Virus record (IMG/VR): IMGVR_UViG_3300012983_000031
Span: 156,296-220,295 of that record
DNA: 64,000 nt
Source of the DNA: a virus
Lineage: Duplodnaviria; Caudoviricetes
Direction: 5' to 3' (one strand)
Positions 294 to 56,506 of the stretch are shown here, piece by piece. The notes beneath the pieces are model-generated. The model saw only the letters and a program-made list of their open reading frames with translations. It did not search any database and was not told the DNA's origin. The first letter of the stretch is position 1. The number at the start of each line of letters is the position of its first letter. Both the position numbers and the translations under genes were made by a program.

Positions 294-326
294 TTTTTGT
301 AGTCATAATTTAGATTTTTTGTTTTT

Positions 327-357
327 GGGTCGAACTTTTTTGTTCGATCCTTTTTTA
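327..357 (+). terminator. Intrinsic terminator
   Basis: GGGTCGAAC-loop-GTTCGATCC followed by T-tract. Confidence 0.7.
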
Positions 358-396
358 TTTAAAAGAAAAGTTGTATCTTTGCAACAAATTTAAAAT

Positions 397-606
397 ATGT
401 TTATAGTGATGGAAGATAATAAAAACACAAATGTCAGCTGTGGCGGATGCGGATGCGGATGTCTTTCGCTTATTGTCACATTTCTTTTAATTACATTTAC
501 AGTTACATGTTTGGTTAATTCATGCAAGAGAGGCTCTCTGTGGGAAGGATGTGTGGAGACAGCACACGAGTATTATCAGACGGCGGATAGTGTTTGGAAC
601 AAATAA
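397..606 (+). CDS. Small Cys/Gly-rich membrane protein
   Basis: CGGCGCGC then one hydrophobic helix; TATCTTTG -7 promoter element at 374-381. Confidence 0.65.
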   Translation: MFIVMEDNKNTNVSCGGCGCGCLSLIVTFLLITFTVTCLVNSCKRGSLWEGCVETAHEYYQTADSVWNK

Positions 607-627
607 TTTAAAAATAAAAAAACAATT

Positions 628-1062
628 ATGTTAAACATCAACGATTTAATTATGAAGGCGATGAAGGAACGCCAGGAGCGTACTGTCATCGACACTTACC
701 GTGCAATTAAGGCAAAGATTCTTGAGTTTAAGACACAAAAGAACGCACCAGTATATGATGAGGCTGCTGAAGTTAAGCTGCTCCAGAAGATGTTAAAGGA
801 ACGCCAGGAGTCAGCTAATATCTACAAAAGCAACGGAAGAACAGATCTTGCTGACAATGAACTTCAGCAGGCGGATGTTATTTCACAATTGATTCCAGAT
901 CTGCCAAGCGAATTAGATGTTGAGGAATATATAGTTTCTCATTATCCTGATTTAATAGAGCAAAAGAAGATGGGTGCTGTTATTAAAGATGTTAAGTCAG
1001 TTTTCCCGTTGGCTGATGGATCTGTTATCGCTAATGTTGTTAAGAAATATATAAAGAAATGA
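628..1062 (+). CDS. yqeY: GatB/YqeY domain protein
   Basis: AMK...KMLKERQESANIY..NGRTDLADNE...MGAVIKDV...ADG pattern of the YqeY family. Confidence 0.85.
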   Translation: MLNINDLIMKAMKERQERTVIDTYRAIKAKILEFKTQKNAPVYDEAAEVKLLQKMLKERQESANIYKSNGRTDLADNELQQADVISQLIPDLPSELDVEEYIVSHYPDLIEQKKMGAVIKDVKSVFPLADGSVIANVVKKYIKK

Positions 1063-1841
1063 TTATGTCTCAAAAAACCATTGCAGACGTTTTGCGCAAT
1101 TGTCCGTTGAACAAAAAATTGTATTCAACGGCATATGGTGATTTGCTTTTTAAGTACGTTAAGTTTGACGACATTGTAACATTTTCAAATGAACATAATA
1201 AAGAAATAATATTCGATAGGAATGGTTATCTTTGTTATGGCGAGGTTGTCTTTAGTTGCACAGTAAAAGGAATGAAAGATGGTGGCGGATTTGTAAAAAA
1301 AAGCGATTCGTGCCTGTTGTTCCCGTGCAGAGGTAATCATACATGGGAAAATTGGAGGTCTGTGTTATTCGATCAAGGAGACATTCTTTTTGATGATGTT
1401 AGAACCAATGATGCTTATCAATTTGTTGCCTATGATGATATTGGTTGGATCGAGGTAGAAAATTCAAAAGCTCAAATATTAAATATGCCAATCAGTCATT
1501 TTCGGTTTGCATCGTTTGATGAATGTGAAAAATTTTATAATGATTTCACAACATCTGATGATGTAAAAAAAGATGAACCATCATGTGATTTTGACAAAAC
1601 GAAATATTTCTGTAAGCAGGATGAAAGTGAACATGATCCTAAGTTCAAACCATACGATAAGGTTATCATTCGTAATAACGACAATGATAGCTGGAAAGCG
1701 ACATTCTATTCACATGGTGTGATGAATCCAAATGGAACAATTGAACACTATACAACTGGCTGCACATATTGTGGTTACTGGCAATGCTTACCTTATAATG
1801 ATCAAACAAAACATCTTATCGGAACAGCAAACAAACCATAA
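1059..1841 (+). CDS. Hypothetical phage protein
   Basis: 260-aa ORF overlapping previous stop; C-terminal FKPYDKV...CLPYN...HLIGT motif recalled from Bacteroidota phage proteins. Confidence 0.75.
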   Translation: MIMSQKTIADVLRNCPLNKKLYSTAYGDLLFKYVKFDDIVTFSNEHNKEIIFDRNGYLCYGEVVFSCTVKGMKDGGGFVKKSDSCLLFPCRGNHTWENWRSVLFDQGDILFDDVRTNDAYQFVAYDDIGWIEVENSKAQILNMPISHFRFASFDECEKFYNDFTTSDDVKKDEPSCDFDKTKYFCKQDESEHDPKFKPYDKVIIRNNDNDSWKATFYSHGVMNPNGTIEHYTTGCTYCGYWQCLPYNDQTKHLIGTANKP

Positions 1842-1847
1842 AACAAA

Positions 1848-2411
1848 ATGGTAAAGGATAGACTATATGTTTTTTGCTTTTCCCATGAGGACTTTAATGA
1901 CTACATGAGGATGTCAAACCTGTTCGAGTCACCTGATTCTGAAATGGCTGTTATATCCATATGCTCACAGAACGATGATGACCCGTTCCATTGGTTTCAG
2001 GAAAACCCATACGGAAATGTACTGAACATAGATTTTGATGATATGGATCCATCAATATGGTGGAGATCAAACATGTATGATATTCTTATGGATAAGTATC
2101 TTGATGGGAAAAATGTGGATGATGAATTTAAGTTTTATGTTGATGATTGCCAATCATGTGAATTACATGCGATGACATATAATCAGGCTGAAAAAATAAC
2201 AAATTACATACGAACTAATATAGATCTTGGAATAAGAAAATTTTTCATCCATTGCTCCGCTGGAGTCTCGCGATCCCAAGGTGTTGTCAGGTATATCATG
2301 GATACATATGGCAATGAGTTTCAGGTGATAACAAGAAAAGAAAATCCATGCATCACACCTAACATACACGTTGTCAGAATGCTTAAACGAGTTGATCGTT
2401 TCAAGAGATAA
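1848..2411 (+). CDS. Protein-tyrosine/dual-specificity phosphatase-like protein
   Basis: HCSAGVSRS = HCxxGxxRS P-loop; upstream IDFDD; downstream PN. Confidence 0.85.
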   Translation: MVKDRLYVFCFSHEDFNDYMRMSNLFESPDSEMAVISICSQNDDDPFHWFQENPYGNVLNIDFDDMDPSIWWRSNMYDILMDKYLDGKNVDDEFKFYVDDCQSCELHAMTYNQAEKITNYIRTNIDLGIRKFFIHCSAGVSRSQGVVRYIMDTYGNEFQVITRKENPCITPNIHVVRMLKRVDRFKR

Positions 2412-2434
2412 ATAAAAAAAAAATGTAATACGCA

Positions 2435-3337
2435 ATGGTACATAAACTCAATGAGCAACGCAGAATACATAAGGCTGTTCAGATTGTAACAACTGTGGGA
2501 AACAAAACGGCTAAAGCTGGAGATATTACTGCGGAAACGATATATAATTCTACTAAGAATGAAGCGCATAATGAAGCAATTAATAAAATCGCAAATTATG
2601 TTGTGTATGAACTAAAGAGAAATAAAAGAAAAACTGAGGCAGAAAAGAAACCAGTGCTGAAGAATGGTGACTATTTTGCAGTGGATGGTGGCGCGGTAGG
2701 GATATTCAAAGAATATAGTAACGACGGTTTTATATCTGCATACGCTATTGTTGACAATGAAGGAAGATTGTTCGCTTCACCAAACGGAACGCATACCGTT
2801 GAAGTTCGTAACGATAGCACACGATTTGCTTATAAGCATGAAATATCAATGATAAACAGCGAACTCCAGGAACATGGATATACATGGAAAGCTGACACAA
2901 AAGAATTAATATATGGAAGATGGACACCTAAGATGGGTGAACTCTATTATTATCTTCTCATAAAAGGAGCGTGCGAGTTCTTTGTTGCAGATGGTGAATG
3001 GAAGGATTCCGCAGCAGATAAGAACAGGAACGAGAACGGTAACTGCTTCATGACAAGACAGGATGCTGCTGCATGGATGAAGAAACTTAATGATGCAACA
3101 AAAGAAGTTCGTGAGGAAATGATGAACAAGGCGAACCCTTGGATTGGATATGTGCCGAAGGATGAGATCAAAGATGAGATTAAAGATGAGCCGATTGTTC
3201 CAAAGGATGAGTCAAAGGATGAGCCGATACAGGAACAGATTGAAGAAGAAACTCCAAAAACAACAGAAACAGATAATGTCGAAAAGAAAAGTAAAGTTGG
3301 CATACTTATCAATGCCTATCACAGGTTATTCGGTTGA
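2435..3337 (+). CDS. Hypothetical protein
   Basis: 300-aa ORF, acidic low-complexity tail with KDE repeats. Confidence 0.75.
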   Translation: MVHKLNEQRRIHKAVQIVTTVGNKTAKAGDITAETIYNSTKNEAHNEAINKIANYVVYELKRNKRKTEAEKKPVLKNGDYFAVDGGAVGIFKEYSNDGFISAYAIVDNEGRLFASPNGTHTVEVRNDSTRFAYKHEISMINSELQEHGYTWKADTKELIYGRWTPKMGELYYYLLIKGACEFFVADGEWKDSAADKNRNENGNCFMTRQDAAAWMKKLNDATKEVREEMMNKANPWIGYVPKDEIKDEIKDEPIVPKDESKDEPIQEQIEEETPKTTETDNVEKKSKVGILINAYHRLFG

Positions 3338-3590
3338 TGAAAGAATTAAACGGGCTGATATGCTGAAGGTCGCTCTGGCACATGAATACGACTGTGGCGT
3401 TATCAGCCCTTTTGATGCAGCACCGTATGATCCGAACAAGCCTTATGGACAATGCATGAAAGAATGTATTTCCAAATTGATTGATTGCGATATGGTTATA
3501 TTTGATAGCGGATGGTATAACTCCAACGGTTGCAGGATAGAAGCAGAGGTAGCAAGAGGATGTGAAAAGGAAATGATATTCTTGCACTGA
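3276..3590 (+). CDS. DUF4406 family protein (nucleoside 2-deoxyribosyltransferase-like fold)
   Basis: AYLSMPITG...SPF...LIDCD...GW..SNGCRIE..VA; start reassigned to ATG 3276. Confidence 0.8.
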   Translation: MSKRKVKLAYLSMPITGYSVDERIKRADMLKVALAHEYDCGVISPFDAAPYDPNKPYGQCMKECISKLIDCDMVIFDSGWYNSNGCRIEAEVARGCEKEMIFLH

Positions 3591-4435
3591 TGAATGATTA
3601 TCATTATAATATTGATGTCATGAAATATGTTGACAAGATGAAGCATTTCTGCCAGGTAAACGGAGTAAAGCTTAATCTTGTAAATCCTATAACGATACAG
3701 GATAAGCTTGCATGGCTAAACATTTATGATGAAAATCCGCTTAAGGTAAAATGTGCAGATAAAATTCATCTTCGTGATTATTCTTTAGATGTTCTCGGAG
3801 AAGATTTGTGCATTCCAATAATCAAAGTTTATGATAATGTGAATGATATAGATTGGAATGAATTACCGAACCAATTCGTTATCAAATGTAATCACGGTTC
3901 TGGTATGAACATTATTGTAAAGGATAAAAGCAAGTTGGATGTTAACAAAGCTGTTCGTCAACTAAATGTATGGATGAAAGATGATTTTTCTATGCGTAAC
4001 GGATTTGAAGCTCATTATCATGATATACCACATAAAATTTTTGTAGAGGAATATAAAGAATGTAACGGAACAATTCCATACGATTATAAGTTCCTGTGTT
4101 TCAATGGAGAACCAGTGTATGTTCAGTTGTTTGCTGAACGGTTTGGAAAAGATAGGCACATGAATTATTATGATATGGATTTCAATTATGTCAATCTCTG
4201 CAGAAGAGATTTCAAAAACAATCTGAAAGCGAACCACAAAAAGCCGATAAGATTTAATGACATGATCGAAATGGCAAGGAAACTGGCAAAGCCGTTCAAG
4301 TTCGTTCGCGTGGATCTTTATTGCATAGATGACAAGATATATCTTGGCGAACTGACATTTACCCCAGGGGCGTGCGTGTTCAAATACAAAAACGATATGG
4401 ATAACAAAAGGGTTGGAGATCTTCTTAATATATAA
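3590..4435 (+). CDS. TupA-like ATP-grasp protein
   Basis: ADK, FVIKCNHGSG, IFVEEY, DYKFLCFNG, FVRVDLY, GELTFTPG motifs of ATPgrasp_TupA. Confidence 0.9.
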   Translation: MNDYHYNIDVMKYVDKMKHFCQVNGVKLNLVNPITIQDKLAWLNIYDENPLKVKCADKIHLRDYSLDVLGEDLCIPIIKVYDNVNDIDWNELPNQFVIKCNHGSGMNIIVKDKSKLDVNKAVRQLNVWMKDDFSMRNGFEAHYHDIPHKIFVEEYKECNGTIPYDYKFLCFNGEPVYVQLFAERFGKDRHMNYYDMDFNYVNLCRRDFKNNLKANHKKPIRFNDMIEMARKLAKPFKFVRVDLYCIDDKIYLGELTFTPGACVFKYKNDMDNKRVGDLLNI

Positions 4436-4453
4436 AACAAAAACAGAAAAGAA

Positions 4454-6445
4454 ATGAACATTTATCTTACTGCGATAGCAAAAAACGAATACAAATACAT
4501 TTATGAATTTGTATCTCATCACATCAATATAGGGTTTGACAAAATCATAATATATGATAACAACGATCCGAATGGAGAGTCATATAATGATCTTCTTAAA
4601 GAATATTTAGATAACGGAAAGGTTGAGATAATTGATGTTCGTGGTAAAAAGTGTCAGCAGCTTATTGTATATCATGATGAATATATTCGTAATGCTAATG
4701 TTGACGGATGGATGTTCTTTCTTGATATTGATGAATTTATCATCATGCAGTCATGTGCTGACATTCATGAGTTCATGTCAAAGGAAATATTTAATGGATA
4801 TAACCAGATTCTTTTCAACTGGATGACAATGAGTGATGATAATAAAGTATATTATGAGCCGCTTCCTCTCCGTAAACGATTCAAGAGACCAGTGATGACA
4901 ATGGAGGGATCATTACTGTGCGACATGAATCGCCATGTAAAGTGTGCAGTTCGTTTGAATTGCGTTAAGAATATAATATTCTACACACCTCATAATGCTT
5001 TTAATGTTCTTCCAGTGTGTGACCCGTTGGGAAAGGAACTCCAGAACGGACCATTTAACTACAATCCAGATTATTCAGAAATTTTTATCAAACATTACCA
5101 TTATAAAACCATAGAGGAGTTTGTCACAAACAAGATGACAAAGGGATTCTCCGACGGTTCTTTCAACGAGTCAAATAAGTTTCAGGATTTTTTTGATAAA
5201 AATGATCTTACAGTTGAAAAGGCGAAATGGATGATTGATTACATATTCAAATTGCAAAATGGTTTGATACCGACAAATGTGTCAAACAATAAGGTTTCAT
5301 TATCTAATAGTAGCAAGATGAAACTTTTCATCAGACTATATTATAAATTCGAGGCTATATACACCTGTGCCGATTATATAGGCAGAGAGGATGACGCGCT
5401 CATCAAAAATCAATTTAACATTATTGTCAACAATGTTCTTGATGAGATAATGCCTATCATAAGATCGTTTTCAAATTTATTTGATAAGATTGAACCAGAA
5501 CTTGTTTACTTAAAAAATAATGTTATACCATATATCAATTCAAAATCAGATAACATTTCAACCGTTAAAAATGATATATTGTCATGGAGCTATAAATGGC
5601 GTTCGCTTATAAAGCTTGCTGAAAATCTTTATGGGGCAGAAAATGTTCCAGATGAAGACATAAAAAACCATGACAACATGTTGACGAGATTCAAGGTTGA
5701 TTTATACACCGTTTGCTGGAACGAAATAGATCTTCTTCCGTTTACCATTGATTATTGGAAACGATTTGTTAACCATGCGTATGTATTTGACAACGGATCG
5801 AATGATGGAACCATAGAGTATCTGAAACAATTCAAATGGATAACTGTTATACCATTTGAAACAGATGGAATAAATGATGAGGTTATGCTGTCTATAAAGA
5901 ATGAAATGTGGAAACATTCAAAAGGTTCTGCAGATTATGTTGTTGTGTGTGACATAGATGAATGCCTATATGCAAAGGATCTTGAAGCGGAACTTGTTTA
6001 CATGAATCATGCAAAACAATCTGTATGTCATCCAAGATGGTATAATATGATTGGTACAGAATTGTATGAACACCAAGAAGGTAAGTACCTTCATGAGATT
6101 ATGAGAAACTCGTATGAAGGGAACATTTATGATAAAGCACTTCTGTTCAACCCAAATTACATTACTGATATAAATTATGAACCTGGATGTCATGTTTGCA
6201 AACCTTCTCCACAAGATTATGATGTGTATAATGGAAATAGAATATTCTGTTTTCACTATTCACGGGCGTTCGGTGTAGATTATGCCATAAGAAAAACTCA
6301 TATAAACGGTAAACGCCTGTCCGAAACAAACAGGATAAAAGGATACGGAATACACTATACGTATTCTGATGAAAGAGTCAGAGAAGCGTATGAGAGAAAT
6401 TTACAGAAATCATTTGATGTAAATCCAATCATTGATGAAGAATAA
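4454..6445 (+). CDS. Two-domain glycosyltransferase (GT2-like Glyco_tranf_2_4/GT92-like domains)
   Basis: Two GT-A modules: AIAKNE..IYDNN..FLDIDEF..HY and VCWNE..FDNGSNDGT..VCDIDE..HY. Confidence 0.85.
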   Translation: MNIYLTAIAKNEYKYIYEFVSHHINIGFDKIIIYDNNDPNGESYNDLLKEYLDNGKVEIIDVRGKKCQQLIVYHDEYIRNANVDGWMFFLDIDEFIIMQSCADIHEFMSKEIFNGYNQILFNWMTMSDDNKVYYEPLPLRKRFKRPVMTMEGSLLCDMNRHVKCAVRLNCVKNIIFYTPHNAFNVLPVCDPLGKELQNGPFNYNPDYSEIFIKHYHYKTIEEFVTNKMTKGFSDGSFNESNKFQDFFDKNDLTVEKAKWMIDYIFKLQNGLIPTNVSNNKVSLSNSSKMKLFIRLYYKFEAIYTCADYIGREDDALIKNQFNIIVNNVLDEIMPIIRSFSNLFDKIEPELVYLKNNVIPYINSKSDNISTVKNDILSWSYKWRSLIKLAENLYGAENVPDEDIKNHDNMLTRFKVDLYTVCWNEIDLLPFTIDYWKRFVNHAYVFDNGSNDGTIEYLKQFKWITVIPFETDGINDEVMLSIKNEMWKHSKGSADYVVVCDIDECLYAKDLEAELVYMNHAKQSVCHPRWYNMIGTELYEHQEGKYLHEIMRNSYEGNIYDKALLFNPNYITDINYEPGCHVCKPSPQDYDVYNGNRIFCFHYSRAFGVDYAIRKTHINGKRLSETNRIKGYGIHYTYSDERVREAYERNLQKSFDVNPIIDEE

Positions 6446-6447
6446 CA

Positions 6448-8063: not shown

Positions 8064-8354
8064 TGTATTTGGTAGTTAAATCTGTTGCAAAGTTACATCG
8101 AATATTTTATATAGAAAAGAAATTGTATGATGAATGTTCAATTTCACATTTGTTAACAAACGTGTTTGCGTTCAGTAATGTCAATGACATTACTTATTTT
8201 CGATAATGTCAATGACATTACCGAACTCCAGCGAACACCACACATCTCTCATCGTATGGGTGCCACGCATTTTGTAATGTCATTGTCATTACCAAAGTTG
8301 GATAAATAGAGAGATATACAAATGTGTATATTATATAATGAGTAGAAAATAAAG

Positions 8355-8750: not shown

Positions 8751-8756
8751 TGGCAG

Positions 8757-8813
8757 TTAACAACATTTAACACAAAATATTTTGTAGTTACATATATTAT
8801 GCTTACCTTTGCA
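8757..8813 (+). promoter_or_regulatory. Bacteroidota sigma-A promoter for the phage sigma gene
   Basis: TTAACAACATTTAAC...TTTG...TACCTTTG (-7 at 8804-8811). Confidence 0.8.
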
Positions 8814-8843
8814 GATGAATTAAAAACAAAAGCAATTTGAATT

Positions 8844-9704
8844 ATGATTATCAACAAATCTTCGGATAGTGTTTACGTCAGGGGAAGACAGGAGGTTCTT
8901 TTCAGATACCTCAACATGTTCAGAAAGTATAAGCCCCTAACTTTTGAAAAGGAGAATGAGTACATCACCAGATACAAGGTTGATGGCGATTTGAATGCAA
9001 GGGACATGCTGATTAAGTGCAACCAGCGTTTCCTTTATTCTGCTGCGAAAAGGTTTTCAAGCGATGCGGAAACCATTCTCGACCTCATTGATGAGGGAAA
9101 CCTTGGTCTTATAGAAGCCATTGAAAAATTCGATTTCACCTTTGGCGTTCGTCTTCTTTCCTACGCACAGGCGTACATATCAAGAAATATGGTGAACTAC
9201 TTCTGTAACGACAGGATGATAACTCGACCGATGGATACAAAAATCGGTAGCCGTGTTGCTAACGAACGTAATATCTTTTACAGCATCTATCAGCGTGAGC
9301 CAACTTATGATGAACTTCGTGACATCCTTTACAAGAAATATGGCATTGACGTAAAGTCAGATGATGACCTTTCACAAAACAGAGTTGTTCGCATTGATGA
9401 TCCAGTTTTTGACGGTGAAAATTCATACACGGTTGAGAACACAGATGAATATCTTAACGCAACGAACTGCTACAACGATTACGACAAGACGATAGAGCAG
9501 GACAACACAAAGGCTATTGTTCTGGCGGCGTTGAACAAGATTAACCCGAAAGAGGCTGAAATCGTGAAGATGCGATACGGTATCGGTTATGATCACGAAT
9601 ACATGCCTTGGGAGATTGCAAGCGTGTACAATGTCACTGAAACCAGAATACACCAGATTGTGGCGAAGGCAACAAAGTCGCTCGAATATGTTATGACAGC
9701 ATAA
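8844..9704 (+). CDS. Phage-encoded RNA polymerase sigma-70 family factor
   Basis: Region 1.2 (YL..F.KYKPLTFEKE), region 2 (DLIDEGNLGLIEAIEKFD...LLSYA), region 4 HTH (RYGIG...EIASVYNVTETRIHQI). Confidence 0.92.
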   Translation: MIINKSSDSVYVRGRQEVLFRYLNMFRKYKPLTFEKENEYITRYKVDGDLNARDMLIKCNQRFLYSAAKRFSSDAETILDLIDEGNLGLIEAIEKFDFTFGVRLLSYAQAYISRNMVNYFCNDRMITRPMDTKIGSRVANERNIFYSIYQREPTYDELRDILYKKYGIDVKSDDDLSQNRVVRIDDPVFDGENSYTVENTDEYLNATNCYNDYDKTIEQDNTKAIVLAALNKINPKEAEIVKMRYGIGYDHEYMPWEIASVYNVTETRIHQIVAKATKSLEYVMTA

Positions 9705-9749: not shown

Positions 9750-10250
9750 ATGAGTCAAAAAAACAAACAAAGCAAAAGCAAGAAGCAGTATGCGGATAAT
9801 TTTTATTATCCGTTTGTGAACCCGAACATTACTTACGGATTCTACAAGACATCGGAAGGTGATATTCGCAAGTCGAAATTCATCAAACTAAGTTTTCAAA
9901 GGAAAGATATTTATCACGCCGAAAACTCAAAGAGCGTTGTGTGCAAACTCAAATGTTACCTTTCATTTAACGTTCCAGATTTTATGGTTACGGAAATGAT
10001 GAAATTCACATCCTTTGAGGTTACAGGTGTTGCAATCTGTTCGGATGATGACACATTTGAACTTAACAAGGGAAAACTTATTGCCAGCGCAAAGGCGGAA
10101 AACGAGGCTTATCGAGTGGCAAGAAACATGTTGAAGACGATGCTCCAACAGTATGAGAACTTCCTTATTGGAGTTCGATCCCAGTTGGATATGTTTGAGT
10201 CGTTCAGCAAACATAACAACGATTTCATTGAAAGAGTTGTCGCTGAATAA
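9750..10250 (+). CDS. Hypothetical phage protein
   Basis: ORF after the sigma gene; GVAICSDDDTF...GK.IA..KAE motif. Confidence 0.75.
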   Translation: MSQKNKQSKSKKQYADNFYYPFVNPNITYGFYKTSEGDIRKSKFIKLSFQRKDIYHAENSKSVVCKLKCYLSFNVPDFMVTEMMKFTSFEVTGVAICSDDDTFELNKGKLIASAKAENEAYRVARNMLKTMLQQYENFLIGVRSQLDMFESFSKHNNDFIERVVAE

Positions 10251-10795: not shown

Positions 10796-11248
10796 ATGGT
10801 AAAGAATTTGAAAAAGGAACCGAAAGACGGTGACATTCTGGTGCTAAAGAATAATCATAATATAATTTACAAATACAACGGAAATTATAATGGTTATGCG
10901 TCGTTCAAATACAATGCGTTTCATGTAGCACTTTGCTTTTGGGGAGAAAATGATGTTCCTACGGTGACGCATAAGGAGCATGACACAGAGGTTGTTTCCT
11001 ACGGTGCTGAATGGGAGTTCGCAACTGATGAAGAAATAAAACGTTTTAATGAAGGTCTGGAACTTGCAACCGATCAAAAGTTTCGTGAACATGTTTATGA
11101 AAATGTGGATAATATTGCAGAGTTAATGACGGAACTTTATGAAATTGATACTGATGATGAAAGAATTAAAATCGTTCTGGACACAATAAAGTCAGGATGG
11201 ATTGAAAAAATAATTAAAGATAAAGATAATTTCAAAAAATTAAAGTAG
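10796..11248 (+). CDS. Hypothetical protein
   Basis: Co-oriented ORF in the cassette. Confidence 0.7.
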   Translation: MVKNLKKEPKDGDILVLKNNHNIIYKYNGNYNGYASFKYNAFHVALCFWGENDVPTVTHKEHDTEVVSYGAEWEFATDEEIKRFNEGLELATDQKFREHVYENVDNIAELMTELYEIDTDDERIKIVLDTIKSGWIEKIIKDKDNFKKLK

Positions 11249-11526: not shown

Positions 11527-11781
11527 GTTCATTTCAATGTCTTTTATTTTTATAAGTTGGTGGGATCGCCGAAAGGCGATCCTTTTTTTGTTGATGCCGA
11601 GGCAGAAATCTGTCGTCAGGCGTGGTTTGATAATGTCAATGACATTACTTAAATTAAGTTGATGGAAAAATATTATTGATACGTTAACATCATTTAACCA
11701 AAATAATTTGTCAGTTCAATAATAAATTTGTAACTTTGCAACATAATTCAATAAAGTATAAACCAATAAAACAAAAACAGA

Positions 11782-14267: not shown

Positions 14268-14370
14268 TTAACATCATTTAACTAAAATAATTTGGTTATG
14301 TCAGAATAAGTTCATAACTTTGCATCATCAGAATAAAAAATAGTATTAACCAACAAAAACAAAAACAATT
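14268..14370 (+). promoter_or_regulatory. Representative cassette promoter and leader (one of >50 near-identical copies)
   Basis: TTAACATCATTTAACTAAAATAATTTGG-N-TAACTTTGCA then AATAGTATTAACCAACAAAAACAAAAAC-ATG; matches the Bacteroidota -33 TTTG / -7 TAnnTTTG consensus. Confidence 0.9.
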
Positions 14371-17676: not shown

Positions 17677-18510
17677 ATGGAGAATTACAAAAAGACTTTG
17701 AAAGAATGTGGTTTCAATTACCTTGGCGGTCTTAAAAGATCAGCAAAGATGACGAAGTCGTTCAATCACAATGTAGCCACATACTGTGTGTACCTTGCAC
17801 CAGCAAACATGGCTGGGAGAACTAAAAAGGGAACAAGAATCAATGTGTGTCCTATGAGCACACACTGTAAGGAACTCTGCCTTAATTCCTCTGGACACAA
17901 TAAGGCTGACATCCTTTCGCATGGCAAAGAAAATTCCCGTCAGTCAGACATCAACAAGTGCCGTATCAAGAAAACGAAACTGTTCTACAACGACAGGGAT
18001 TTGTATATGGATATTCTTATCCATGAAATCACCCGTGATCGCAAATATGCACAGAACAACGGCATGGAATTTTCAGTTCGCCTCAACGGTACATCTGACC
18101 TTTCACCTGAAATCATGTGCAAAGATGGAAAGAACATTCTTGAAATCTTCCCTGATGTTCAGTTCTACGACTACACCAAAGTCCCAAACAGAATTAAACT
18201 GATGAAACTTTATCCTAATTATGACATCACATTTTCGTTCGATGGCTACAACTGGGATACATGCGAGGAATTTCTTAACAACGGCGGCAAGGTTGCTGTG
18301 GTGTTCGACAGCGAAAAGATGCCAGCATACTATAAGGGATATAAAGTAGTGGATGCAAACGAATATGATATGCGCTACCTCGATCCAAATGGTTGCATTA
18401 TGGGACTGGAATTTCATCCAATCGTAAAGGATGGAAAAGTGATGAAAGCACAGGATGTTGACGATCCGTTTGTCATTAAGACACAAAACAATCCTGATGT
18501 GAAATTCTGA
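17677..18510 (+). CDS. Gene product 88 (GP88)-like phage protein
   Basis: YLAPA, NVCP...C...CL..SG, VRLNGTSDL, VQFYDYTK, DMRYLD motifs. Confidence 0.7.
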   Translation: MENYKKTLKECGFNYLGGLKRSAKMTKSFNHNVATYCVYLAPANMAGRTKKGTRINVCPMSTHCKELCLNSSGHNKADILSHGKENSRQSDINKCRIKKTKLFYNDRDLYMDILIHEITRDRKYAQNNGMEFSVRLNGTSDLSPEIMCKDGKNILEIFPDVQFYDYTKVPNRIKLMKLYPNYDITFSFDGYNWDTCEEFLNNGGKVAVVFDSEKMPAYYKGYKVVDANEYDMRYLDPNGCIMGLEFHPIVKDGKVMKAQDVDDPFVIKTQNNPDVKF

Positions 18511-18618
18511 TAACAAAACTTACATAAAACCATAACTAAACATATACATTTTGTTTTTTTGTTGGTTGGGTCGGCTCGGTGCTCCTTATGGTTCGAGCCG
18601 ACCTGTTTTTTGCATCTT

Positions 18619-20231: not shown

Positions 20232-20471
20232 CACAGGCGAACGGCACAAACACATAATAACTGGATGATCGATTTCTCGATCATCTTTTTTTGTTCAATG
20301 GCAGAATCGGCATGGGGTGCCACCCTGTCGGTAATGTCAATGACATTACCAGACCTTCATCCCGTCGTCTTGGTTCGCTCTGGAGTTCGACAAAAAAACA
20401 AAAAGTCCGATCCTGTCATCACGACAGAACCGAACCACAAAATCTAAATACTAACTAAATTATCTAACCGA

Positions 20472-21822: not shown

Positions 21823-21859
21823 AAAAAAAAGTTCGGCTACCTGTCACAGGCAACCGAAC
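21823..21859 (-). terminator. GTGA-loop family intrinsic terminator
   Basis: GTTCGGTTGCCTGTGACAGGTAGCCGAAC + T-tract; same hairpin at 48077-48112. Confidence 0.8.
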
Positions 21860-23821: not shown

Positions 23822-23907
23822 GATCAAAAAAGTTCGACCATGTCATCACGACAGAGCCGAACCAAAATAACAATCTTCAATTAATCATTAAAAATGGTCT
23901 ATACATG
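23822..23907 (-). ncRNA. Candidate small RNA (gene-less promoter-terminator unit)
   Basis: -7 element 23910-23917, ~45-nt U-rich body, GTGA-loop terminator 23826-23862; at most a 9-codon ORF. Confidence 0.6.
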
Positions 23908-24152
23908 TGCAAAGGTACGAACTTATTTTGAATCCGCCAAATAAATCAGGTTAAAATACGTTAAAGGAATATCATTTTCGTTACACTACGAAAATGGTCT
24001 GCGGGACAAAGTAATGTCATTGACATTACCGAACTCCTGCGGAAGGCGCACCATGTTGTCTGGAGTTCCTTATCGCACATAAAAAAGTTCGGCTACCTTC
24101 ACAGGCAACCGAACACAATTATTTAATTTCAAATAATAATGTACACAAATTC

Positions 24153-26515: not shown

Positions 26516-26596
26516 AATAAAAATAGGATCGAACCTGTTTCACAACAGACTCGACCCGTCAAAAAATCTAATAATTTAATACCATGAAAAACACGT
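26516..26596 (-). ncRNA. Candidate small RNA (gene-less promoter-terminator unit)
   Basis: -7 element 26599-26606, body UUUUCAUGGUAUUAAAUUAUUAGAUUUUUUG, GTGA-loop terminator 26525-26557. Confidence 0.6.
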
Positions 26597-30186: not shown

Positions 30187-30470
30187 CAATTTCTGGAGTT
30201 CGATCAAAATAATATGTTAAACTTTATTAAAATTAATTTTTTGCCGCCAAATTCGCTCTCTGCTGCGTTTTATTTGTTGAGGCTGTAAGTTGCACAGGTG
30301 TCGATTAAAAAACGCACCAGCGGCGAATTTCAAGTAATGTCATTGACATTACCAGAGTTGTCCTCCTGGTGTTAACATTCGTTAACATATTCCATCAGCG
30401 CATGAAGAAAGGGATCGAACCAAATCGATCCCCCTCGCACATAAACACAAAAATGAATAAAAGAATTTCC

Positions 30471-31433: not shown

Positions 31434-31743
31434 ACCTACTTTGACGTTTTGGATATAATTGTATATAGTTTCCTTTTATTTTGATGATGCAAAGTTACGA
31501 ACTTATTTTGACATCACCAAATTATTTTAGTTAAACAATGTTAATCGGATCAAATTAATTTCTGGAGTTCGCCCCAGTTCGCCCGTTAAGTAATGTCATT
31601 GACATTACCGAACTCCAAACAGATGAGGTTATATTTCTGTTATCTGGAGTTCGCACACAAAAAAGGTTCGGCTACCTGTAAAAGGTGACCGAACCAAAAT
31701 AAGATATTATAAAAAATGTTAAACTTTTGTGTATAATAATTTT

Positions 31744-44846: not shown

Positions 44847-45389
44847 ATGGCAACAGTATTTGGAATCACGTTCAACTCACAGAACGAATTTGACATCAAC
44901 AAAAATTTCGACTGCATCAGTTCAATGGAAGATGGAGAAGAAGAAACAACGTTCCGCACGAAGAAGGTGTATCATCATGACGACGATCCTGACATCAGGT
45001 TTGATTACAGGTATGTCATAACGGCATGGACATCGGATCAGAACACTACGTACTATGCTCTGTATCTCATTCCAGAGTTCAGTTCAATCAGCGAACGCCA
45101 CCAGCAAGAAATAATCGATTTCTGTGGATGTGACACTCCTAACATCAGCGACATCATGAGTTACGGTGCTGATATTATAATGGGTGCAGAAACATACGAC
45201 GGGGAATACAGTCAGGATGTTGTGGACAATATCGCACAGGTCATCGACACAATCGACTCATTGATTGGATTCTATCTTGACAAATACCAAAACAGAATCG
45301 GTACGACAGGATGGGATATGTTGGAAGACTACATCAATGATGTGAACTGGATGACCGCCACTATGGAACGGTACAAAAAACAGGCATAA
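44847..45389 (+). CDS. Hypothetical protein
   Basis: Consensus promoter (-7 at 44790-44797); ends GFYLD...NRIG.TGWD. Confidence 0.8.
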   Translation: MATVFGITFNSQNEFDINKNFDCISSMEDGEEETTFRTKKVYHHDDDPDIRFDYRYVITAWTSDQNTTYYALYLIPEFSSISERHQQEIIDFCGCDTPNISDIMSYGADIIMGAETYDGEYSQDVVDNIAQVIDTIDSLIGFYLDKYQNRIGTTGWDMLEDYINDVNWMTATMERYKKQA

Positions 45390-45785
45390 CCATTTTGTTT
45401 TATTAATACTTCTTTTGTTGTTAGGGGGCAACGGGCTTTAAGTTCGTTCGCCCCTTTTCTTGTGTGCATAAGAACCGACAGGGGACAGAGGAGAATGGAG
45501 GCGACAGCCAAGTAATGTCACTGACATTACAGCCTGATTAAGGAGGCGAACCCAAGGCTTTGGTCAGTACCCAAGCACGAGATGTAAACAGTAAGTAATG
45601 TCACTGACATTACCGCCAGATCACAGGATGAGCAATCAGGGTTCCGTGGCGTTCGTTCAGATCAAATTATTTTCACGAATTTAACATTGTTTAACTAAAA
45701 TATTTTGGAGGTTACAAATAAAGTTCGTACCTTTGCATCAGATTAAGAAACAAACAAGTATTAACAAATTAAAACAAAATGCCTT

Positions 45786-47142: not shown

Positions 47143-47525
47143 GGTTCAAAATAGATAGGCATTTGTAATTTTTCGTGTTAGCGTGGGGCACTTTCGTCGT
47201 GATGACGGGAGTGCTCATTTTTTATTTACATCAGGCGAACTCCAGAAATCCGACAGATCCTGATTTACCATCTCGTGATCTGTGGTAATGTCAATGACAT
47301 TACTTCAGGGGTACCCTCCTCGTAAAGTATCCGATTGATTTTCAGCAAGATAACTGGAATAAAATATGAATAAAAACCAAAAATAATTTGTGATATTTTT
47401 TGATCCAGATCTACAGGATATTCAAGAATAAAAAATGTTTTTTATTTTCACATTATTTAACGCCAAATATTTGGATATGTCATGTGAAGTTCGTACCTTT
47501 GCATAGAACTTATAAAAATAGACAA

Positions 47526-48021: not shown

Positions 48022-48076
48022 ATTTGTTTCATACATAAATGTTAATTTTCATTTTAGTGAGTTTTTAGCGAGTGGA

Positions 48077-48112
48077 GTTCGGTTGCCTGTGACAGGTAGC
48101 CGAACTTTTTTT
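48077..48112 (+). terminator. GTGA-loop family intrinsic terminator
   Basis: GTTCGGTTGCCTGTGACAGGTAGCCGAAC + T7. Confidence 0.8.
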
Positions 48113-48640: not shown

Positions 48641-48918
48641 TATGCCATTTAGATTTTTTGTTGGAGGCTCGCACCCATACCCTTGGGTTCGAGTCTTTTT
48701 TATGCAATTATGCGAACTCCAAGGAACCTCATCATCTCTGGGTGATCTTGTTGTAATGTCAGTGACATTACTTGATGGACGACGGATCCAATCCTTGGTT
48801 AGCATAGGCTTGCTACATTTAGTTAAATAATGTAAACACAATGAAGAAATATGGATATTCGTTTTGTTATTTCAAATATTATTCGTACCTTTGTACCGAA
48901 TTAAAAAACTATATAGCA

Positions 48919-49735: not shown

Positions 49736-49755
49736 CCAATTAAAAAACAAAAAAT

Positions 49756-50145: not shown

Positions 50146-50274
50146 TCCGAAAATTTTCTTGACATTTTTTAACAAAAAAAGTTGGAAAAAAATTTGGATA
50201 TTATTTTGAAAGTTCGTAACTTTGCATCATCAAACAAACAACAATAGTATTAACCAACAAAAAACTAAAACATT

Positions 50275-50538: not shown

Positions 50539-50795
50539 AAGATAGTTTCTTTCTCTGCTCATAATTTTACTTCGGCAGGTGCTCGGACTGAAAAGTTCGG
50601 GCACTCGCTTTTTTGTGGCGAACAACCCAGTTATACGTGGATCCGTCGCCAGTCAAGTAATGTCACTGACATTACACACCAGATCACCAGCGGGAATGGA
50701 TCCATCAAGGTGGAGTTTGTACACACAAAAAATGTTCGGCGAACTTCACAGCCAGCCGAACACAACTCAAATTTTCAAACTTAAATTATTCAAAA

Positions 50796-50954
50796 TCAAT
50801 CATCTATACAATAATCTTGTCGAATATCCTGTCGTAAATTGCGACAACCAGTTTCAATCGAACCATTATCTGATGTGCAGGTAGCACCGTATTGCATCAC
50901 ACGCAGTATTGCACCCATTAGACCAGACTTTCCTGTACATCCTTTTGTTTTCAT
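50796..50954 (-). CDS. Small hypothetical protein
   Basis: Promoter -7 at 50982-50989; terminator ~50727-50762. Confidence 0.6.
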   Translation of the reverse strand: MKTKGCTGKSGLMGAILRVMQYGATCTSDNGSIETGCRNLRQDIRQDYCIDD

Positions 50955-51404
50955 ACTGTTATATGTTTTTGTAATTCGGTACAAAGTTACGGCTTTTATT
51001 TGAAACAACCAAACGTTAAAACGTTAAAATACGTTAAACGAATGCAATGATAACATTCTTTAGCATATACGTTAAACTCAGGTTCATCGACGCATATCCT
51101 GATAGTAATGTCAATGACATTACATCCTGATCACAAGATGGTAACATCAGGATTATACTGATAAGCATTGAAGTCCCTTGAGGAGGATACAGCAAAGGAA
51201 TGTCAATGACATTACACCAGCTCACGACGGGTTTGCTGATCCATCTTCTGGAGTTCGGCGAACTTCATATGCAACCGAACCCACCATATAAAATTACGAT
51301 ATTCAAATTATCTTTGTTAAAGAAATCACTTTAACACATCGCTGACCATACGTACCCGACATACGTGACCGATTCATAACAGCTCCGTAATGTCAGTGAC
51401 ATTA

Positions 51405-51734
51405 CTACTGGGGTGCCTCCTCTTCAGACACTGCGGAGAAAAACGGATTGTACTTAAGTGACTTGATGATGTTTTCAAGATACAGGCACTCGTCCAAGAA
51501 TCCATTCACCTCATCATGTGACAGACTGAACCATTCGTTACTGACCCTCGACATCGCATGACGAGCGTGAAGCATCTTCTCCATACGGAACGGGTGGCTT
51601 GTCCTGTGGTGAGCGACCATGCTAATTTCGTTGGCGTTGCCTGTCTGCAACTTCTTTATACGACCTTCGATAGACCCTCTCGTCACGCCTATCTTGTAAT
51701 ACTCGCCATCCGTTAGAAGATAAACATATCCCAT
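51405..51734 (-). CDS. T5orf172/GIY-YIG-superfamily nuclease-like protein
   Basis: GYVYLL...YKIGVT....RIKKLQTGN...EKMLH...EWF. Confidence 0.85.
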   Translation of the reverse strand: MGYVYLLTDGEYYKIGVTRGSIEGRIKKLQTGNANEISMVAHHRTSHPFRMEKMLHARHAMSRVSNEWFSLSHDEVNGFLDECLYLENIIKSLKYNPFFSAVSEEEAPQ

Positions 51735-52200
51735 GTAATTATTGAGGTTGCTTTTTGAGTTCGCACTATTTATTCGAGTCGATAGTTCTCTGGAGATCGT
51801 CATCATAATGTCAGTGACATTACTTCGGATTATCCAGCTGGAAAATTCAGGAATAATTCTTCGTAAAAATCTTGGAAAAAAGTTGATAAAAAAGCTGAAG
51901 CTTTTTCCAAAAATAAATATAAGGGTGATTGCGGATAATCACCCGAATTTCTTTTCTGTTTTTTCATAATTGTTTTTGGAGAGTGGATGTGGTTCGAGAG
52001 GATAGCATCCATTTTTCGTCAATGGGACTCTGATGGCAGGTTTGCTTTTCAGGCTGTAATGTCAACGACATTACCTGACGACCGACGAGATTGAGCGGTG
52101 TTAAATACCTGTCGGTTGTGAACAAAAAAAATCAAGAGCGAACTTCACAGCCAGCCCTTGATGCTCAATAACCTAAATACTATGATAGAAAAAAAAGATA

Positions 52201-52611
52201 CTACGCAATCGATTTAACTCTGCCCTCATACGCCTTGACTATCTTTGCCAATTCCGCATCACAGGCATCGTACAATTCATCATAATCATCGTACTCATTC
52301 CGCAGTTCATCAAACCTGTTTACAAAATCTTGCGGTTCTCCGTCAATTTCCTTGTAGTACACAATCTCGAATCCGTCATAGTCGAACGACAATGTGTACG
52401 CATATTCAAGGTTGAACCAACCCTTGCAGAGTTTAACGAAGAACTCTGGTGCTTTACGTTGTGTGTAAGCGAACACAAGAAGAATGTTATCAGCCTCACG
52501 CTTTAATTTGAATGAATCAAGATTACCTACGAAATCAGCGGTAGTCATCATCCTGTCGATGTTTGCTGGTGTTCCAACAAATGCAATCACGCTGCTAATG
52601 GTCGCTGACAT
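52201..52611 (-). CDS. Hypothetical protein
   Basis: Promoter -7 at 52658-52665. Confidence 0.75.
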   Translation of the reverse strand: MSATISSVIAFVGTPANIDRMMTTADFVGNLDSFKLKREADNILLVFAYTQRKAPEFFVKLCKGWFNLEYAYTLSFDYDGFEIVYYKEIDGEPQDFVNRFDELRNEYDDYDELYDACDAELAKIVKAYEGRVKSIA

Positions 52612-53388
52612 AATTCCATTAAGTTTTAATTGGTTAATACTTCCTTTAATTATGGTACAAAGTTACTATTTTTCGCTGACCCTACCAAATAAAACGCAAA
52701 CAAATTTAAGGTCATTAACAAACTTTAACGAACTACATTGGAATGCTCATACGCCCGTGAAGGCGTTGAAGTAATGTCAGTGACATTACCTGACGCTATT
52801 GTTACCTTCTTTTGCAAATCATTGATTATCAATACGTTATATACATTTTTACATCTCATTTTCGTGATAAGATAGATACGGTGCTAACCAGAAAGTTAAT
52901 ACATTAATTTACCTGTTCCATCTGAACACTCATTAGTTGTAACAGGAGTTGTTCGAGTCTGTCGCGGGAAGTAATGTCACTGACATTACCGAACGATCTC
53001 CCGCAGGTTTTCTTAGGAAACTTATGAAAAAAAATCCAAGAAAAATACACAAGAAAAGTTGAGATTTTTTTCAGTAAAAATTTCAAGAAAAATCTTGGAA
53101 AAAATACAAGGAATACAATGAACTCATCTTGGCTTCCTCACAGCATTGTAATGTCAATGACATTACTCAGCTCGGAACTGTGCAGATTGGCTGCACAGTA
53201 ATACCTGGTACTCAGCAAGACATAGTAATTACCATCGCGTGATCTGGTGGTAATGTCACTGACATTATATCCCGATCAGGATCGATCGACAGGCATCGAT
53301 GGTCTTCTCTTGGGTTCGCTTGACACAAGCAAAAAGGACACCGAACTTATGTCCGATGTCCTACCGACTTTTGCGGCATTACTGCCGA

Positions 53389-53856
53389 TTATTGATATGC
53401 TTTCCTGTACAATGCCCAATATACTGACAACGTGTCGTTTAATGATATGTTAGACGGAAGCATAGGGTACACCTCATTCTTAATGATGATTGTTGCAAAA
53501 TCTCCGCTAACCTGCACGCTCCGAACTGCAACAACTTTGTGGCGATAAAGGATTCTCGGCATTTCAACATCCGATTCAAATTTAAGTGTGGACGATTCCC
53601 CATCATTGACACCGAACCTGTTTACAAGACCGATTATCTCATTTACAATATCATCCTGCATATCGTTGATTTCCTCAAAATACACGCAGGGCTGCTTCTT
53701 CACGTTCACTACCTTTATATCCTTTTCGGGATAGTAGTTCACACCCACCTTGCAGAACGTTCCGTTTTCGTTCGTGATGATGTCGGTGATTACACCTTCA
53801 TCCAGATAGAGATTGCACTTTGCAATTACACTCATTCCAATTTCCAAATTCTTCAT
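53389..53856 (-). CDS. Hypothetical protein
   Basis: Promoter -7 at 53903-53910 and consensus leader. Confidence 0.75.
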   Translation of the reverse strand: MKNLEIGMSVIAKCNLYLDEGVITDIITNENGTFCKVGVNYYPEKDIKVVNVKKQPCVYFEEINDMQDDIVNEIIGLVNRFGVNDGESSTLKFESDVEMPRILYRHKVVAVRSVQVSGDFATIIIKNEVYPMLPSNISLNDTLSVYWALYRKAYQ

Positions 53857-54351
53857 AATTCCATTTGTTTTTTGTTGGTTAATACTCTTTTGAATTGTGG
53901 TACAAAGTTAGTGAATTTTTATGGCATATCCAAAGGATTTAACGACAAAATGAAGGTATTTAACATTATTTAACAAACGGTATAAACAGAAGAGAAAGGA
54001 TGTGCCAGCCGAGTAATGTCATCGACATTACATCCTGAACCCGCACGTGTGGAGCGGCTCACCAAGGGATTCCGTGAAGCGTCATCATAATGTCAGTGAC
54101 ATTACATCCTGAACTGCTGCTGTATCCTCTCTTGACGAGAAGGTTCATGCGACAACCCAATCTACGGCAGCACAATCGTCTGCCTTGTACAGTTGTTAAT
54201 GTCAGTGACATTATTGGATCGGCAAGATAGCGAGGATTAACTCGTGTCGTGCGCAGATAAATATTTGGAATCGAGATCCATCGCGGCGAAGTTAATGTCA
54301 GTTACATTACCGCCAGATCACGGGATTCCTTCTGCTGGAAAGAATTATACA

Positions 54352-54447
54352 AAAAAATCAGCGGCTACCCTCACGAGCAACCGCTGACAAAAAATGTTGA
54401 TATGAGCAAAATAAAAATCCCTTAATTCATTATTCTTTTTAATTGTG
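54352..54447 (-). ncRNA. Candidate small RNA (gene-less promoter-terminator unit)
   Basis: -7 element 54451-54458; only ATG-AAT-TAA mini-ORF; body GGGAUUUUUAUUUUGCUCAUAUCAACAUUUUUUG; GTGA-loop terminator 54358-54387. Confidence 0.6.
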
Positions 54448-54914
54448 ATACAAAGTTACGGATTTCCTATGACATATACAAGAAAAACACAAACGAAATT
54501 AAGGTCATTAACAAACTTTAACGCACAGCATTGACCACCGAAATCTTCAGATGCCCGACAGCAGGTAATGTCAGTGACATTACTCAGCTCTCAGTTTCGA
54601 GTTGATTTCCATCACCGATTTCTCGTAAAAAACTTCCAAGAAAATCTCGGAAAAAAATCAAAAAAGTTTCAAGAAAAATTTCCAAGAAAAAAATGGAAAA
54701 ATTCATGCGGAAAAATCCAAAGTAATGTCGCTGACATTAAACGCTGGAAAGTATAGCAGAAGTCACTGTCCAAGCAAACAGAACGCAACAGGAGGTAATG
54801 TCGCTGACATTACAAGACGACCGAATAGGGCGGATACTAATCCGTCCTTACACAAAAAATGGGATTGCCCCTTGCGGAACAATCCCACGAAACAATTCTT
54901 ACATATATGAAAAC

Positions 54915-55469
54915 CTAACTAATCTCATAATCTTCTCCGTCAAAACTGATGGACACGATATTGTCAAAATCCACGTTGTTGGGGATAATCTGCTTGCCGA
55001 CCAACAGGCCTGCCTCGCTCTGCTTTGCAGATTCCTTGTGTTCGGGACTATATTCTTTAATGCTTTCCAACTCGCTATCGGTTGCAGGCCGTCCGTCCAC
55101 GAAATAAGAGTAACGAGTGGCGACACCATTCTTCACATAGCAACGTACATACAACTTGCCGTTGTGCTCGATAACTTTGCCCTTTACGAGCCAGGACCCC
55201 CATTTCAGACCCTCGCTCTCAAAAGTTGCAGTAGAGCCGTCAGCCACAAGTGCTTCATTCACTCTCTTCTCATAAGAGCCGCCAAAATCATAGGTGCTCT
55301 CCGCTTCTTTCTCAACTAAATGGTCAGCGACCCACGAACTGCCTTCCTTATGGTAGAAAGGGTTGTTCGTCTTATTCATCTTTGCCTCAGAACGGCTGAT
55401 GATGGTTAATTCCTCAGTTGTGGTGCTTTCAAGCAACTTTACCAAATCATTCTTACTGATAGTTTTCAT
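54915..55469 (-). CDS. Hypothetical phage protein
   Basis: KMNKTNNPF...Y..RVN...WG.W...HNGK.Y motifs. Confidence 0.8.
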   Translation of the reverse strand: MKTISKNDLVKLLESTTTEELTIISRSEAKMNKTNNPFYHKEGSSWVADHLVEKEAESTYDFGGSYEKRVNEALVADGSTATFESEGLKWGSWLVKGKVIEHNGKLYVRCYVKNGVATRYSYFVDGRPATDSELESIKEYSPEHKESAKQSEAGLLVGKQIIPNNVDFDNIVSISFDGEDYEIS

Positions 55470-55858
55470 AATTGTAAGTGGTTTAAGTTAATACTATTGT
55501 TTCCTAAATCTGTTGCAAAGTTACGGAAAATATTTGATATAAACAAGGCCTGAGGGCAACTTTTTTAAGCCATTTAACATTTTTTAACAATCTGTACGGC
55601 AGACCACTCCGCCGTGTCGGACAGTGGTGTAATGTCATTGACATTACTCGCCGATCACGAGATGGAAGACGACCTTATCTTCCAACGAATCGCTACCTTT
55701 ACTTAATTCCAAGACAACCAGTTTGGATCGCTCTGTAATGTCACCGACATTACTCTGGACGAGAAGCAGAAGTACCTGTCGGAGTACCTGCCACAAAAAA
55801 GTTGAGGCTCGCATCACTGCGAACCCCAACCACAAATTATCCCAAAATAAAGATTCCT

Positions 55859-56071
55859 TTACAAATTTGATAGCATCCACACCACCGCTGCGACTATCAG
55901 CACCACTATTAAAATCCAGAACAAGCCAGAGCAGATGCTTACTAATGCGGCAAATATACCCTCCACCGAAATACCGAACAACCAAAACAACTCTTTCAGA
56001 ACGAACCACAACATAGGCAGAACGAACACCAAGAGAAAGAGGCAGATGAATGTCTTAAATAAAAATTTCAT
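55859..56071 (-). CDS. Small membrane protein
   Basis: Almost entirely hydrophobic; promoter at ~56099. Confidence 0.7.
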   Translation of the reverse strand: MKFLFKTFICLFLLVFVLPMLWFVLKELFWLFGISVEGIFAALVSICSGLFWILIVVLIVAAVVWMLSNL

Positions 56072-56506
56072 ATCAGTTACATTTATTGGTTGATGTTGCA
56101 AAGTTACGGCTTTTTTCTGACACCGCAAAATTTTCAGTGTTAAAAAAATTAAACAACCGAAATTTTTTTTCACACGAACAACCCAAATCTCAGAAGGGCT
56201 TCACAATAATGTCACCGACATTACTCACTGGAAAAAACAACCCCTCGGTTGCCGAAGCCACCTCTATGAAGGCGGTCAATCTTACGGGCATAATGTCAGT
56301 GACATTACCCGATGGAAAAAAGGTTCCTTAGCGTTGCCTTAACGAGAGATGTTCATGCACGTCGCGCCGTCTGTAATGTCACTGACATTACTCCCTGGAA
56401 AACCAACAAGTCTTGTCTTCAGCACACGTTCAATGAACAAAAAAGTTCGGCTACCCTCACGGGCGACCGAACTCCGAATAACCTAAAACCTATTATGCGT
56501 AAATGT

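Follow-up and report, generated by a model that had tools for sequence, protein, structure and literature searches.

In enterobacteria, the small RNAs (sRNAs) CpxQ, SroC and DapZ are derived from the 3' untranslated regions (UTRs) of mRNAs, with the seed immediately 5' of the terminator of that mRNA, and are released by processing; they have conserved seeds, defined targets and a dependence on Hfq. In the hok mRNA, fold-back inhibition is achieved by pairing of the 3' end with the 5' start region (fbi/tac pairing). The FopS/GibS family of Bacteroides (Rfam RF04319) comprises 14 paralogous sRNAs made of a single-stranded 5' seed and a terminator, which pair with the start regions of mRNAs lacking Shine-Dalgarno (SD) sequences and block initiation, as at the susC start regions; one member is derived from a 3' UTR, and a FopS sequence was noted by the authors in a Bacteroides phage (PMC11697453). 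Here we describe the 3' UTRs of the early-gene cassettes in the final 64 kb (hereafter the window, 64,000 nt, to which coordinates refer unless a related locus is named) of the 220,295-bp single virus record IMGVR_UViG_3300012983_000031, a Bacteroidota jumbo phage of ~220 kb. The original prediction, whose statement on the FopS family was correct, proposed that these UTRs are reverse complements of translation starts and may form an antisense RNA arsenal. We found that they contain a real, strand-specific but modest excess of an anti-start word, (U)CAUAA(U).

The window covers the early-gene region of the phage. Genes were called by a codon-usage score and terminators with ViennaRNA, and the reading of all gene ends together with a motif scan gave ~45 early cassettes, arranged as promoter, conserved A-rich leader ending in ...AATAGTATTAACCAACAAAAACAAAAAGCAnT followed by ATG, small open reading frame (ORF), 20–60-nt U-rich 3' UTR, hairpin and T-run. 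The promoter is of the Bacteroidota sigma-A (host) type, TTTG-N17-21-TAnnTTTGC; 39 of the 43 copies found genome-wide lie in the window or in the preceding 4 kb, and the density of terminator hairpins is likewise far higher here than elsewhere in the genome. The ~45 hairpins (predicted free energy, dG, −11 to −24 kcal/mol) have a G+C stem, often a GNRA-type loop, and each has a T-run on its 3' side, so that in build and in their location past stop codons they are like ordinary intrinsic terminators. The sequence GCGAACTCCAG and the palindrome GTAATGTCAnTGACATTAC often end the cassette, and gene orientation changes four times across the window.

Between stop codon and hairpin, 33 segments were delimited in the window (mean 40 nt; A.32, C.13, G.14, T.41). 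The predicted enrichment of CAT, the complement of ATG, was borne out: the triplet occurs 37 times in these segments, compared to 24.7 expected from dinucleotide shuffling (p ~0.002) and 18.5 from mononucleotide shuffling, and at least one copy is present in 24 of the 33 (17.6 expected). Sense-strand ATG is at expectation (22 vs. 22). When all 64 trinucleotides were compared, ATA (z 4.0) and CAT (z 3.6) were the only outliers. CATA was found 20 times (7.5 expected), and CATAA, CATAAT, ATAAT, TACAT, CATTT and ACATA are also enriched, with CATA, TACAT and ACATA often clustered inside a single UTR. The CAT excess is specific to the sense strand and limited to the stop-to-hairpin compartment. No CAT excess was detected in the 5' leaders, in the 60 nt past the terminators or in coding 40-mers, which rules out a general property of noncoding DNA. 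CATA density is maximal 1–12 nt past the stops of early genes, with no such peak at the other genes of the phage, and a direct count over ~13 terminator flanks outside the early region gave ~8 CAT in ~450 nt, i.e., background density. Use of CATAA as an in-frame back-up stop could be discarded, as its TAA is distributed over the three frames (5, 7 and 6 cases), and inspection of the UTRs revealed neither a −7 box (TAnnTTTG) nor a reverse-complement promoter inside them.

No close relative of the phage was found among deposited phages by megablast, queries with the GP88-family protein and the palindrome recovered no relatives among viral contigs, the palindrome gave single chance matches only in metagenomes, and the Prevotella Lak phages have only distant protein links to it. 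The GP88-family protein encoded at 17677–18510 has many metagenomic homologues, and through them we reached 20-kb loci of seven related phages that served as a replication sample. Their cassettes have the same build, their UTRs are largely unalignable with those of the window, and the bias recurs in this sample. In the pooled set of 82 non-redundant UTRs (eight phages, the window phage included) CAT was found 81 times compared to 59.9 expected (z 3.9) and CATA 46 times compared to 19.5 (z 7.2); the counts for longer words were 22 vs. 7.2 (CATAA), 11 vs. 2.1 (CATAAT) and 10 vs. 2.4 (TCATAA). At least one CAT was present in 54 of the 82 (42.8 ± 3.7 expected). Sense-strand ATG is mildly depleted in the pooled UTRs (37 vs. 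47 expected, z −2.2), which would fit avoidance of re-initiation past the stop. As a reference we used Bacteroides oleiciplenus YIT 12058, a stand-in chosen via its GP88 homologue (the phage's own host may differ), from which 17 stop-to-hairpin segments were taken over 200 kb of one genome, a control of limited power. These flanks are A-rich (A.42, T.28), unlike the T-rich ones of the window, and have no excess of CAT (z 1.2) or CATA (z 0.2). As far as this small sample goes, the U-rich and CATA-rich flanks of the phage therefore cannot be put down simply to the way terminators are built locally.

Genuine starts of early genes have the form ...A(-3)T(-2)T(-1)ATG A, and translation starts at ATTATG in 37% of 293 early genes, a hexamer also favoured in the B. 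oleiciplenus sample (15% of genes). This makes CATAAT and TCATAA, the enriched hexamers, a perfect complement to the consensus start, ATTATG(A). In addition, the three bases beside CAT (−3 to −1) are more start-like than those at other sites within these UTRs (z 3.8). The A-rich leader that had been seen opposite the ATG is explained by the T-rich composition of the UTR alone: with the ATG left out, a leader matrix did not score above shuffles (z 0.25). A hidden Markov model (HMM) of the leader, run with nhmmer, detected every true leader at an expect value (E) <0.003 and gave only weak antisense matches in the UTRs (45385–45411, 18547–18567 and 48654–48664, E 4–22), which speaks against the UTRs being inverted copies of the conserved leader.

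One element of the window comes much closer to a described sRNA. The Rfam search of the window at gathering thresholds, one of the checks proposed with the original prediction, found nothing. In a permissive scan the top match was FopS (RF04319), at 26517–26594 on the minus strand, with 37.4 bits (below the gathering score of 56), an E of 0.068 window-wide and 5.7e-5 genome-wide, and the full length of the model aligned. Its first 18 nt, GUGUUUUUCAUGGUAUUA, correspond to the FopS seed and are identical to the FopS consensus at 18 of 18 positions, as well as to one of the 12 above-threshold FopS copies of B. oleiciplenus. A −7 box (TAACTTTGCAAC) is located 5 nt upstream and a terminator downstream. 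The unit is a stand-alone gene and not a 3' UTR, and its predicted fold is a largely open 5' part plus the terminator (z −3.6). Judged by these features, it is the only element of the window that qualifies as a putative dedicated start-codon-targeting sRNA, and it suggests a host among the Bacteroidaceae and a repression of SusC-type starts.

The UTR modules share with FopS the general layout, a single-stranded stretch with CAU followed directly by a Rho-independent terminator: in silico, UTR positions are mostly unpaired (0.64–0.69) directly 5' of the stable hairpin, and a local hairpin between ORF end and UTR was ruled out (minimum free energy z 0.04). Unlike FopS, they have no promoter of their own and lie below the Rfam threshold, none of them reaching the 56-bit gathering score of RF04319 (best values 17.5, 17.2 and 13.4 bits, E 0.4–2.4). 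Allowing up to three mismatches, the R1/R1' seed GUGUUUUUCAU(A/G)GUAUUA matched the gene at 26517–26594 and none of the UTR modules, and compared with the 5' part of FopS the UTRs scored no better than shuffles overall (mean z 0.02). The geometry also differs. FopS has its U-run on the 5' side of CAU, where it pairs with Lys codons past the AUG; in the modules the T-run is on the 3' side of CAT, a position from which it would pair with the leader.

Some UTRs do share blocks with the FopS-like gene and with host FopS. The sequence TTTAGATTTT is common to the UTRs at 294–326, 48641–48663 and 20437–20471, its only three occurrences in the window, all on the sense strand of 3' UTRs, and the FopS-like RNA has ATTAGATTTT with one mismatch; TAGTATTTAGRTT is found exactly in two UTRs. 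These three modules and those at 52163–52200 and 56475–56506 may descend from FopS-type genes captured as terminators. FopS homology as the cause of the entire bias is ruled out, given that the excess stays when FopS-like UTRs are removed (CAT z 4.2, CATA z 6.8). No complementarity to FopS was found in the early leaders; the conserved leader instead carries the 9-mer ATAGTATTA in the same sense as FopS nt 10–18, with 8 copies in the window vs. 0.9 expected; the leader sites at 14340, 22686, 24921, 30019, 33100 and 50244 belong to one paralogous leader family.

All 14 CAT/ATG triplets originally listed are in place, each preceded by a stop codon and followed by a G+C hairpin with a T-run. Eight of the modules are on the plus strand. 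The first (294–350) consists of the UTR 294–326 with CAT at 304 (CATAATTTAGATTTTTTG) and the hairpin 327–350; its best partner among the 188 phage start regions is the start at 8844 (8813–8855) of a sigma-70-family factor encoded at 8844–9704. It is followed by the module 11527–11583 (CAT at 11530, terminator 11562–11583) and by that of the GP88-family gene (18511–18604, terminator 18568–18604), with four CATs, the last at 18547 and followed by TTTGTTTTTTTGTTGGTT, and a weak antisense match to the leader HMM (E=6). A similarly weak match (E=4.2) is found in the module 45390–45455 (CAT at 45391, terminator 45424–45455). The remaining plus-strand modules are 47143–47216 (CAT at 47160, terminator 47186–47216), 48022–48107 (CATs at 48030, 48034 and 48050, terminator 48075–48107), 48641–48697 (CAT at 48646, CATTTAGATTTTTTG, terminator 48664–48697) and 50539–50609 (CATAAT at 50560, terminator 50574–50609).

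On the minus strand, where the triplet appears as ATG on the plus strand, the modules are 24087–24152 (ATG at 24139, terminator 24087–24114), 30411–30470 (ATG at 30453, terminator 30411–30432), 31665–31743 (ATG at 31716, terminator 31665–31695), 52131–52200 (ATG at 52182, terminator 52131–52162), 54859–54914 (ATG at 54907, terminator 54859–54888) and 56443–56506 (ATG at 56495, terminator 56443–56474). The sense strand of the module at 52131–52200 contains the FopS-like TCATAGTATTTAGGTTATT (17.5 bits with the FopS model, E 0.38; p=0.035) and that of 56443–56506 contains CATAATAGGTTTTAGGTTATT (17.2 bits), and the UTR of the module at 54859–54914 is one of the few for which the start of the own gene is the best predicted partner (dG −16.3, rank 0.00). 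The six UTRs named as lacking CAT (16546, 19159, 20440, 53380, 55830 and 57190) indeed lack it; that of the minus-strand module 20404–20471 (terminator 20404–20436) carries a FopS-like block, TAGTATTTAGATTTT. The hairpins fall into sequence families, for example GTTCGGYTRCC-loop-GGYRRCCGAAC at 21831–21859, 24087–24114, 31665–31695, 48075–48107 and 56443–56474; they precede T-runs and often also GCGAACTCCAG, and their upstream UTRs are unrelated. The terminator modules appear duplicated or mobile.

The reading that we prefer, with a probability of roughly 0.4, is that of ordinary terminator flanks with an anti-start word, with a generic, class-wide damping effect if the word acts at all. The segments are the U-rich 5' flanks, predicted to be unstructured, of the ordinary intrinsic terminators that close the ~45 early cassettes, and the word, as complement of the AUUAUG(A) start context found in early and in many Bacteroides genes, would most likely work as a low-specificity pairing site covering SD-less starts of the AUUAUG class. 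Pairing could occur in cis, once the mRNA is complete, or in trans, through 3' fragments protected by their hairpin, and the outcome would be a damping of translation across the class and not a gene-specific antisense set. That the early 3' UTRs act as distributed FopS-like, 3'-derived sRNAs, with hairpin-protected CAUAAU fragments blanketing AUUAUG-type SD-less starts together with the stand-alone FopS-like RNA, we consider unlikely.

A number of results weigh against our preferred reading. The CAT excess amounts to only ~11 of the 82 UTRs, about one third of which lack CAT, and a 6-nt word cannot provide specificity. Similarity to FopS is significant (p≤0.02) for only ~5 of 110 modules. The A at −3, originally counted in ~18 of 23 cases, is not enriched: its unselected share is 18/37 in the window and 33/79 among non-redundant UTRs, no more than their T content (~0.40) predicts. 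The higher figure reflects selection by eye; among the 14 listed examples the A is present in 10. Start-centred complementarity, the core of the prediction, did not exceed shuffled controls either when the 33 UTRs were compared with the 188 phage start regions: the mean RNAduplex energy was −7.17 vs. −7.03 ± 0.10 kcal/mol for shuffles (per-UTR minima −16.8 vs. −16.1 ± 0.35), internal coding windows pair better (−8.04 kcal/mol), and local alignment of antisense UTRs with phage starts gave a z of 0.9. There was no preference by energy for the start of the own gene (rank 0.44) or the next one (0.49), nor by unanchored alignment when the ORF end was added and the loci were pooled, where the own start had a rank of 0.485 and was top partner in 3 of 102 UTRs, i.e., at chance level. 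Finally, in alignable orthologous UTR pairs (50–97% identity; a crude test with non-independent pairs) CAT was fully conserved in 39 of 87 cases (45%) vs. 46% for other triplets, with no sign of selection.

The three ranks rule out cis pairing with the own or next leader as a general rule, and in this the UTRs are unlike hok, fold-back not being general among them. An anchored, in-register comparison did give a weak preference for the own start (percentile 0.594, p 0.008) that disappeared at shifted registers and is not reproduced by the unanchored alignment. The strongest cases are the GP88 gene of the related locus L014 and the window cassette ending at 54915, and in both a hok-like 3' element complementary to the own start is clear. 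In L014 the GP88-family ORF has an inverted repeat of ~24 nt between its start region (~9985–10015) and its stop/3' UTR (10826–10855), with an alignment score of 19.5 vs. 14 for the best other start, and can be considered a candidate for hok-like fold-back. Compared to CpxQ, SroC and DapZ, the window UTRs have only a 6-nt word and no conservation signal.

The original reading went further, and proposed that the UTRs are processed seed-plus-hairpin sRNAs, each occluding a specific start of the host (defence genes, receptors) or of the phage, in a diversified arsenal. Part of it stood: the anti-start bias is real and strand-specific, as the CAT and CATA data show, the FopS-type layout of a single-stranded stretch plus terminator (PMC11697453) is present, and the window itself also contains a FopS-like gene. 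The specific targets did not, given the results of the shuffle controls and the lack of selective conservation of CAT. Complementarity to phage starts does not rise above composition-matched controls, and in the stand-in Bacteroides genome only a weak excess (z ~2.3) was found. There, exact 7- and 8-mers of phage UTRs complementary to start windows were modestly above shuffles (z 2.5 and 2.2) and 4.6x as frequent as in internal windows, mostly from U-rich/A-rich pairing. Some isolated long matches speak for defined targets, such as the UTR at 294–326 with the start at 8844 (dG −23.3 kcal/mol, alignment p<0.02) and the L014 GP88 gene with its own start (19.5 vs. 14), but they are about as many as 33–102 tests predict. 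Furthermore, UTRs have been replaced wholesale between relatives whose upstream proteins share 84% identity. A diversified, target-specific arsenal is for these reasons very doubtful.

Because the conservation and specificity tests were negative, two explanations that dispense with antisense pairing stay as serious rivals. The modules might have no pairing function and be mobile, decaying remnants of sRNA genes or inverted leader/start fragments, left by frequent cassette inversion and recombination. The hairpins come in repeat families while the UTRs upstream of them differ, certain modules have blocks in common with FopS and with one another, near-copies of leader plus start are found in reverse complement (L014 GP88 and the window UTRs 54889–54914, 45390–45423 and 18511–18567), gene orientation switches four times, CAT is conserved no more than its surroundings, and an excess of CAT over ATG and of T over A is the signature of reverse-complemented coding or leader DNA. 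Such an origin does not easily account for UTRs that are mostly unrelated in sequence and yet have a common bias, one that stays after removing redundant as well as FopS-like UTRs; moreover, the supposed inverted leaders come without reverse-complement promoters and the antisense matches to the leader HMM are weak (E>4). We take this origin to be possible, if on balance somewhat unlikely. Quite unlikely, in our view, is that (U)CAUA(A) or UACAU serves on the sense RNA as a site at which an RNA-binding protein or nuclease binds or cuts, acting for example in a faster turnover of early mRNA or in the release of the hairpin fragment, with a coincidental likeness to starts. It would agree with the joint enrichment and frequent clustering of CATA, TACAT and ACATA, with the density peak at ≤12 nt from the stop and no fixed distance to the hairpin, and with the lack of target specificity. 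Set against this, the top hexamers, CATAAT and TCATAA, match the complement of the consensus start exactly, and neither a candidate protein or nuclease nor a distance rule was identified.

Some other features of the window deserve mention. The palindrome GTAATGTCAnTGACATTAC has 59 perfect copies, all of them within positions 8176–58092 and mostly in the gap that separates a terminator from the promoter after it, and at the corresponding place the related phages have a different palindrome, TTAATCTCAnTGAGATTAA; it is probably the operator of a phage-specific regulator. Two promoter-to-terminator units on the minus strand (23822–23941 and 54357–54470, of ~85 and ~100 nt) contain no ORF of more than nine codons and had no Rfam match, and two hairpins are predicted for the first (z −3.5); both are candidate phage sRNAs. 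In three related loci, the terminators after the DUF1281_C-family gene (L016 11940–11994, L023 13959–14006 and L018 11840–11885) match RF02838 (Enterococcus sRNA 55), one of them above the gathering score (45.5 bits), which is probably a generic hairpin match.

Even if the bias is a by-product, an unusual U-rich and CATA-rich terminator flank has been documented that helps to annotate such phages, and the window adds a case of a phage with a putative FopS-type sRNA that has the exact seed of the host. Bacteroidota initiate translation without SD pairing on unstructured A-rich leaders, and therefore an abundant U-rich RNA with CAU could be a potent and cheap inhibitor. Should the distributed-sRNA reading be true, it could mean a shut-down of the synthesis of host SusC-type transporters or receptors, or a timed shut-off of the early class of the phage. 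If phage 3' ends do exploit SD-less starts, they would represent a new layer of timing control, both between phage and host and within the phage, in a major group of gut bacteria, and would also provide natural modules that block translation.

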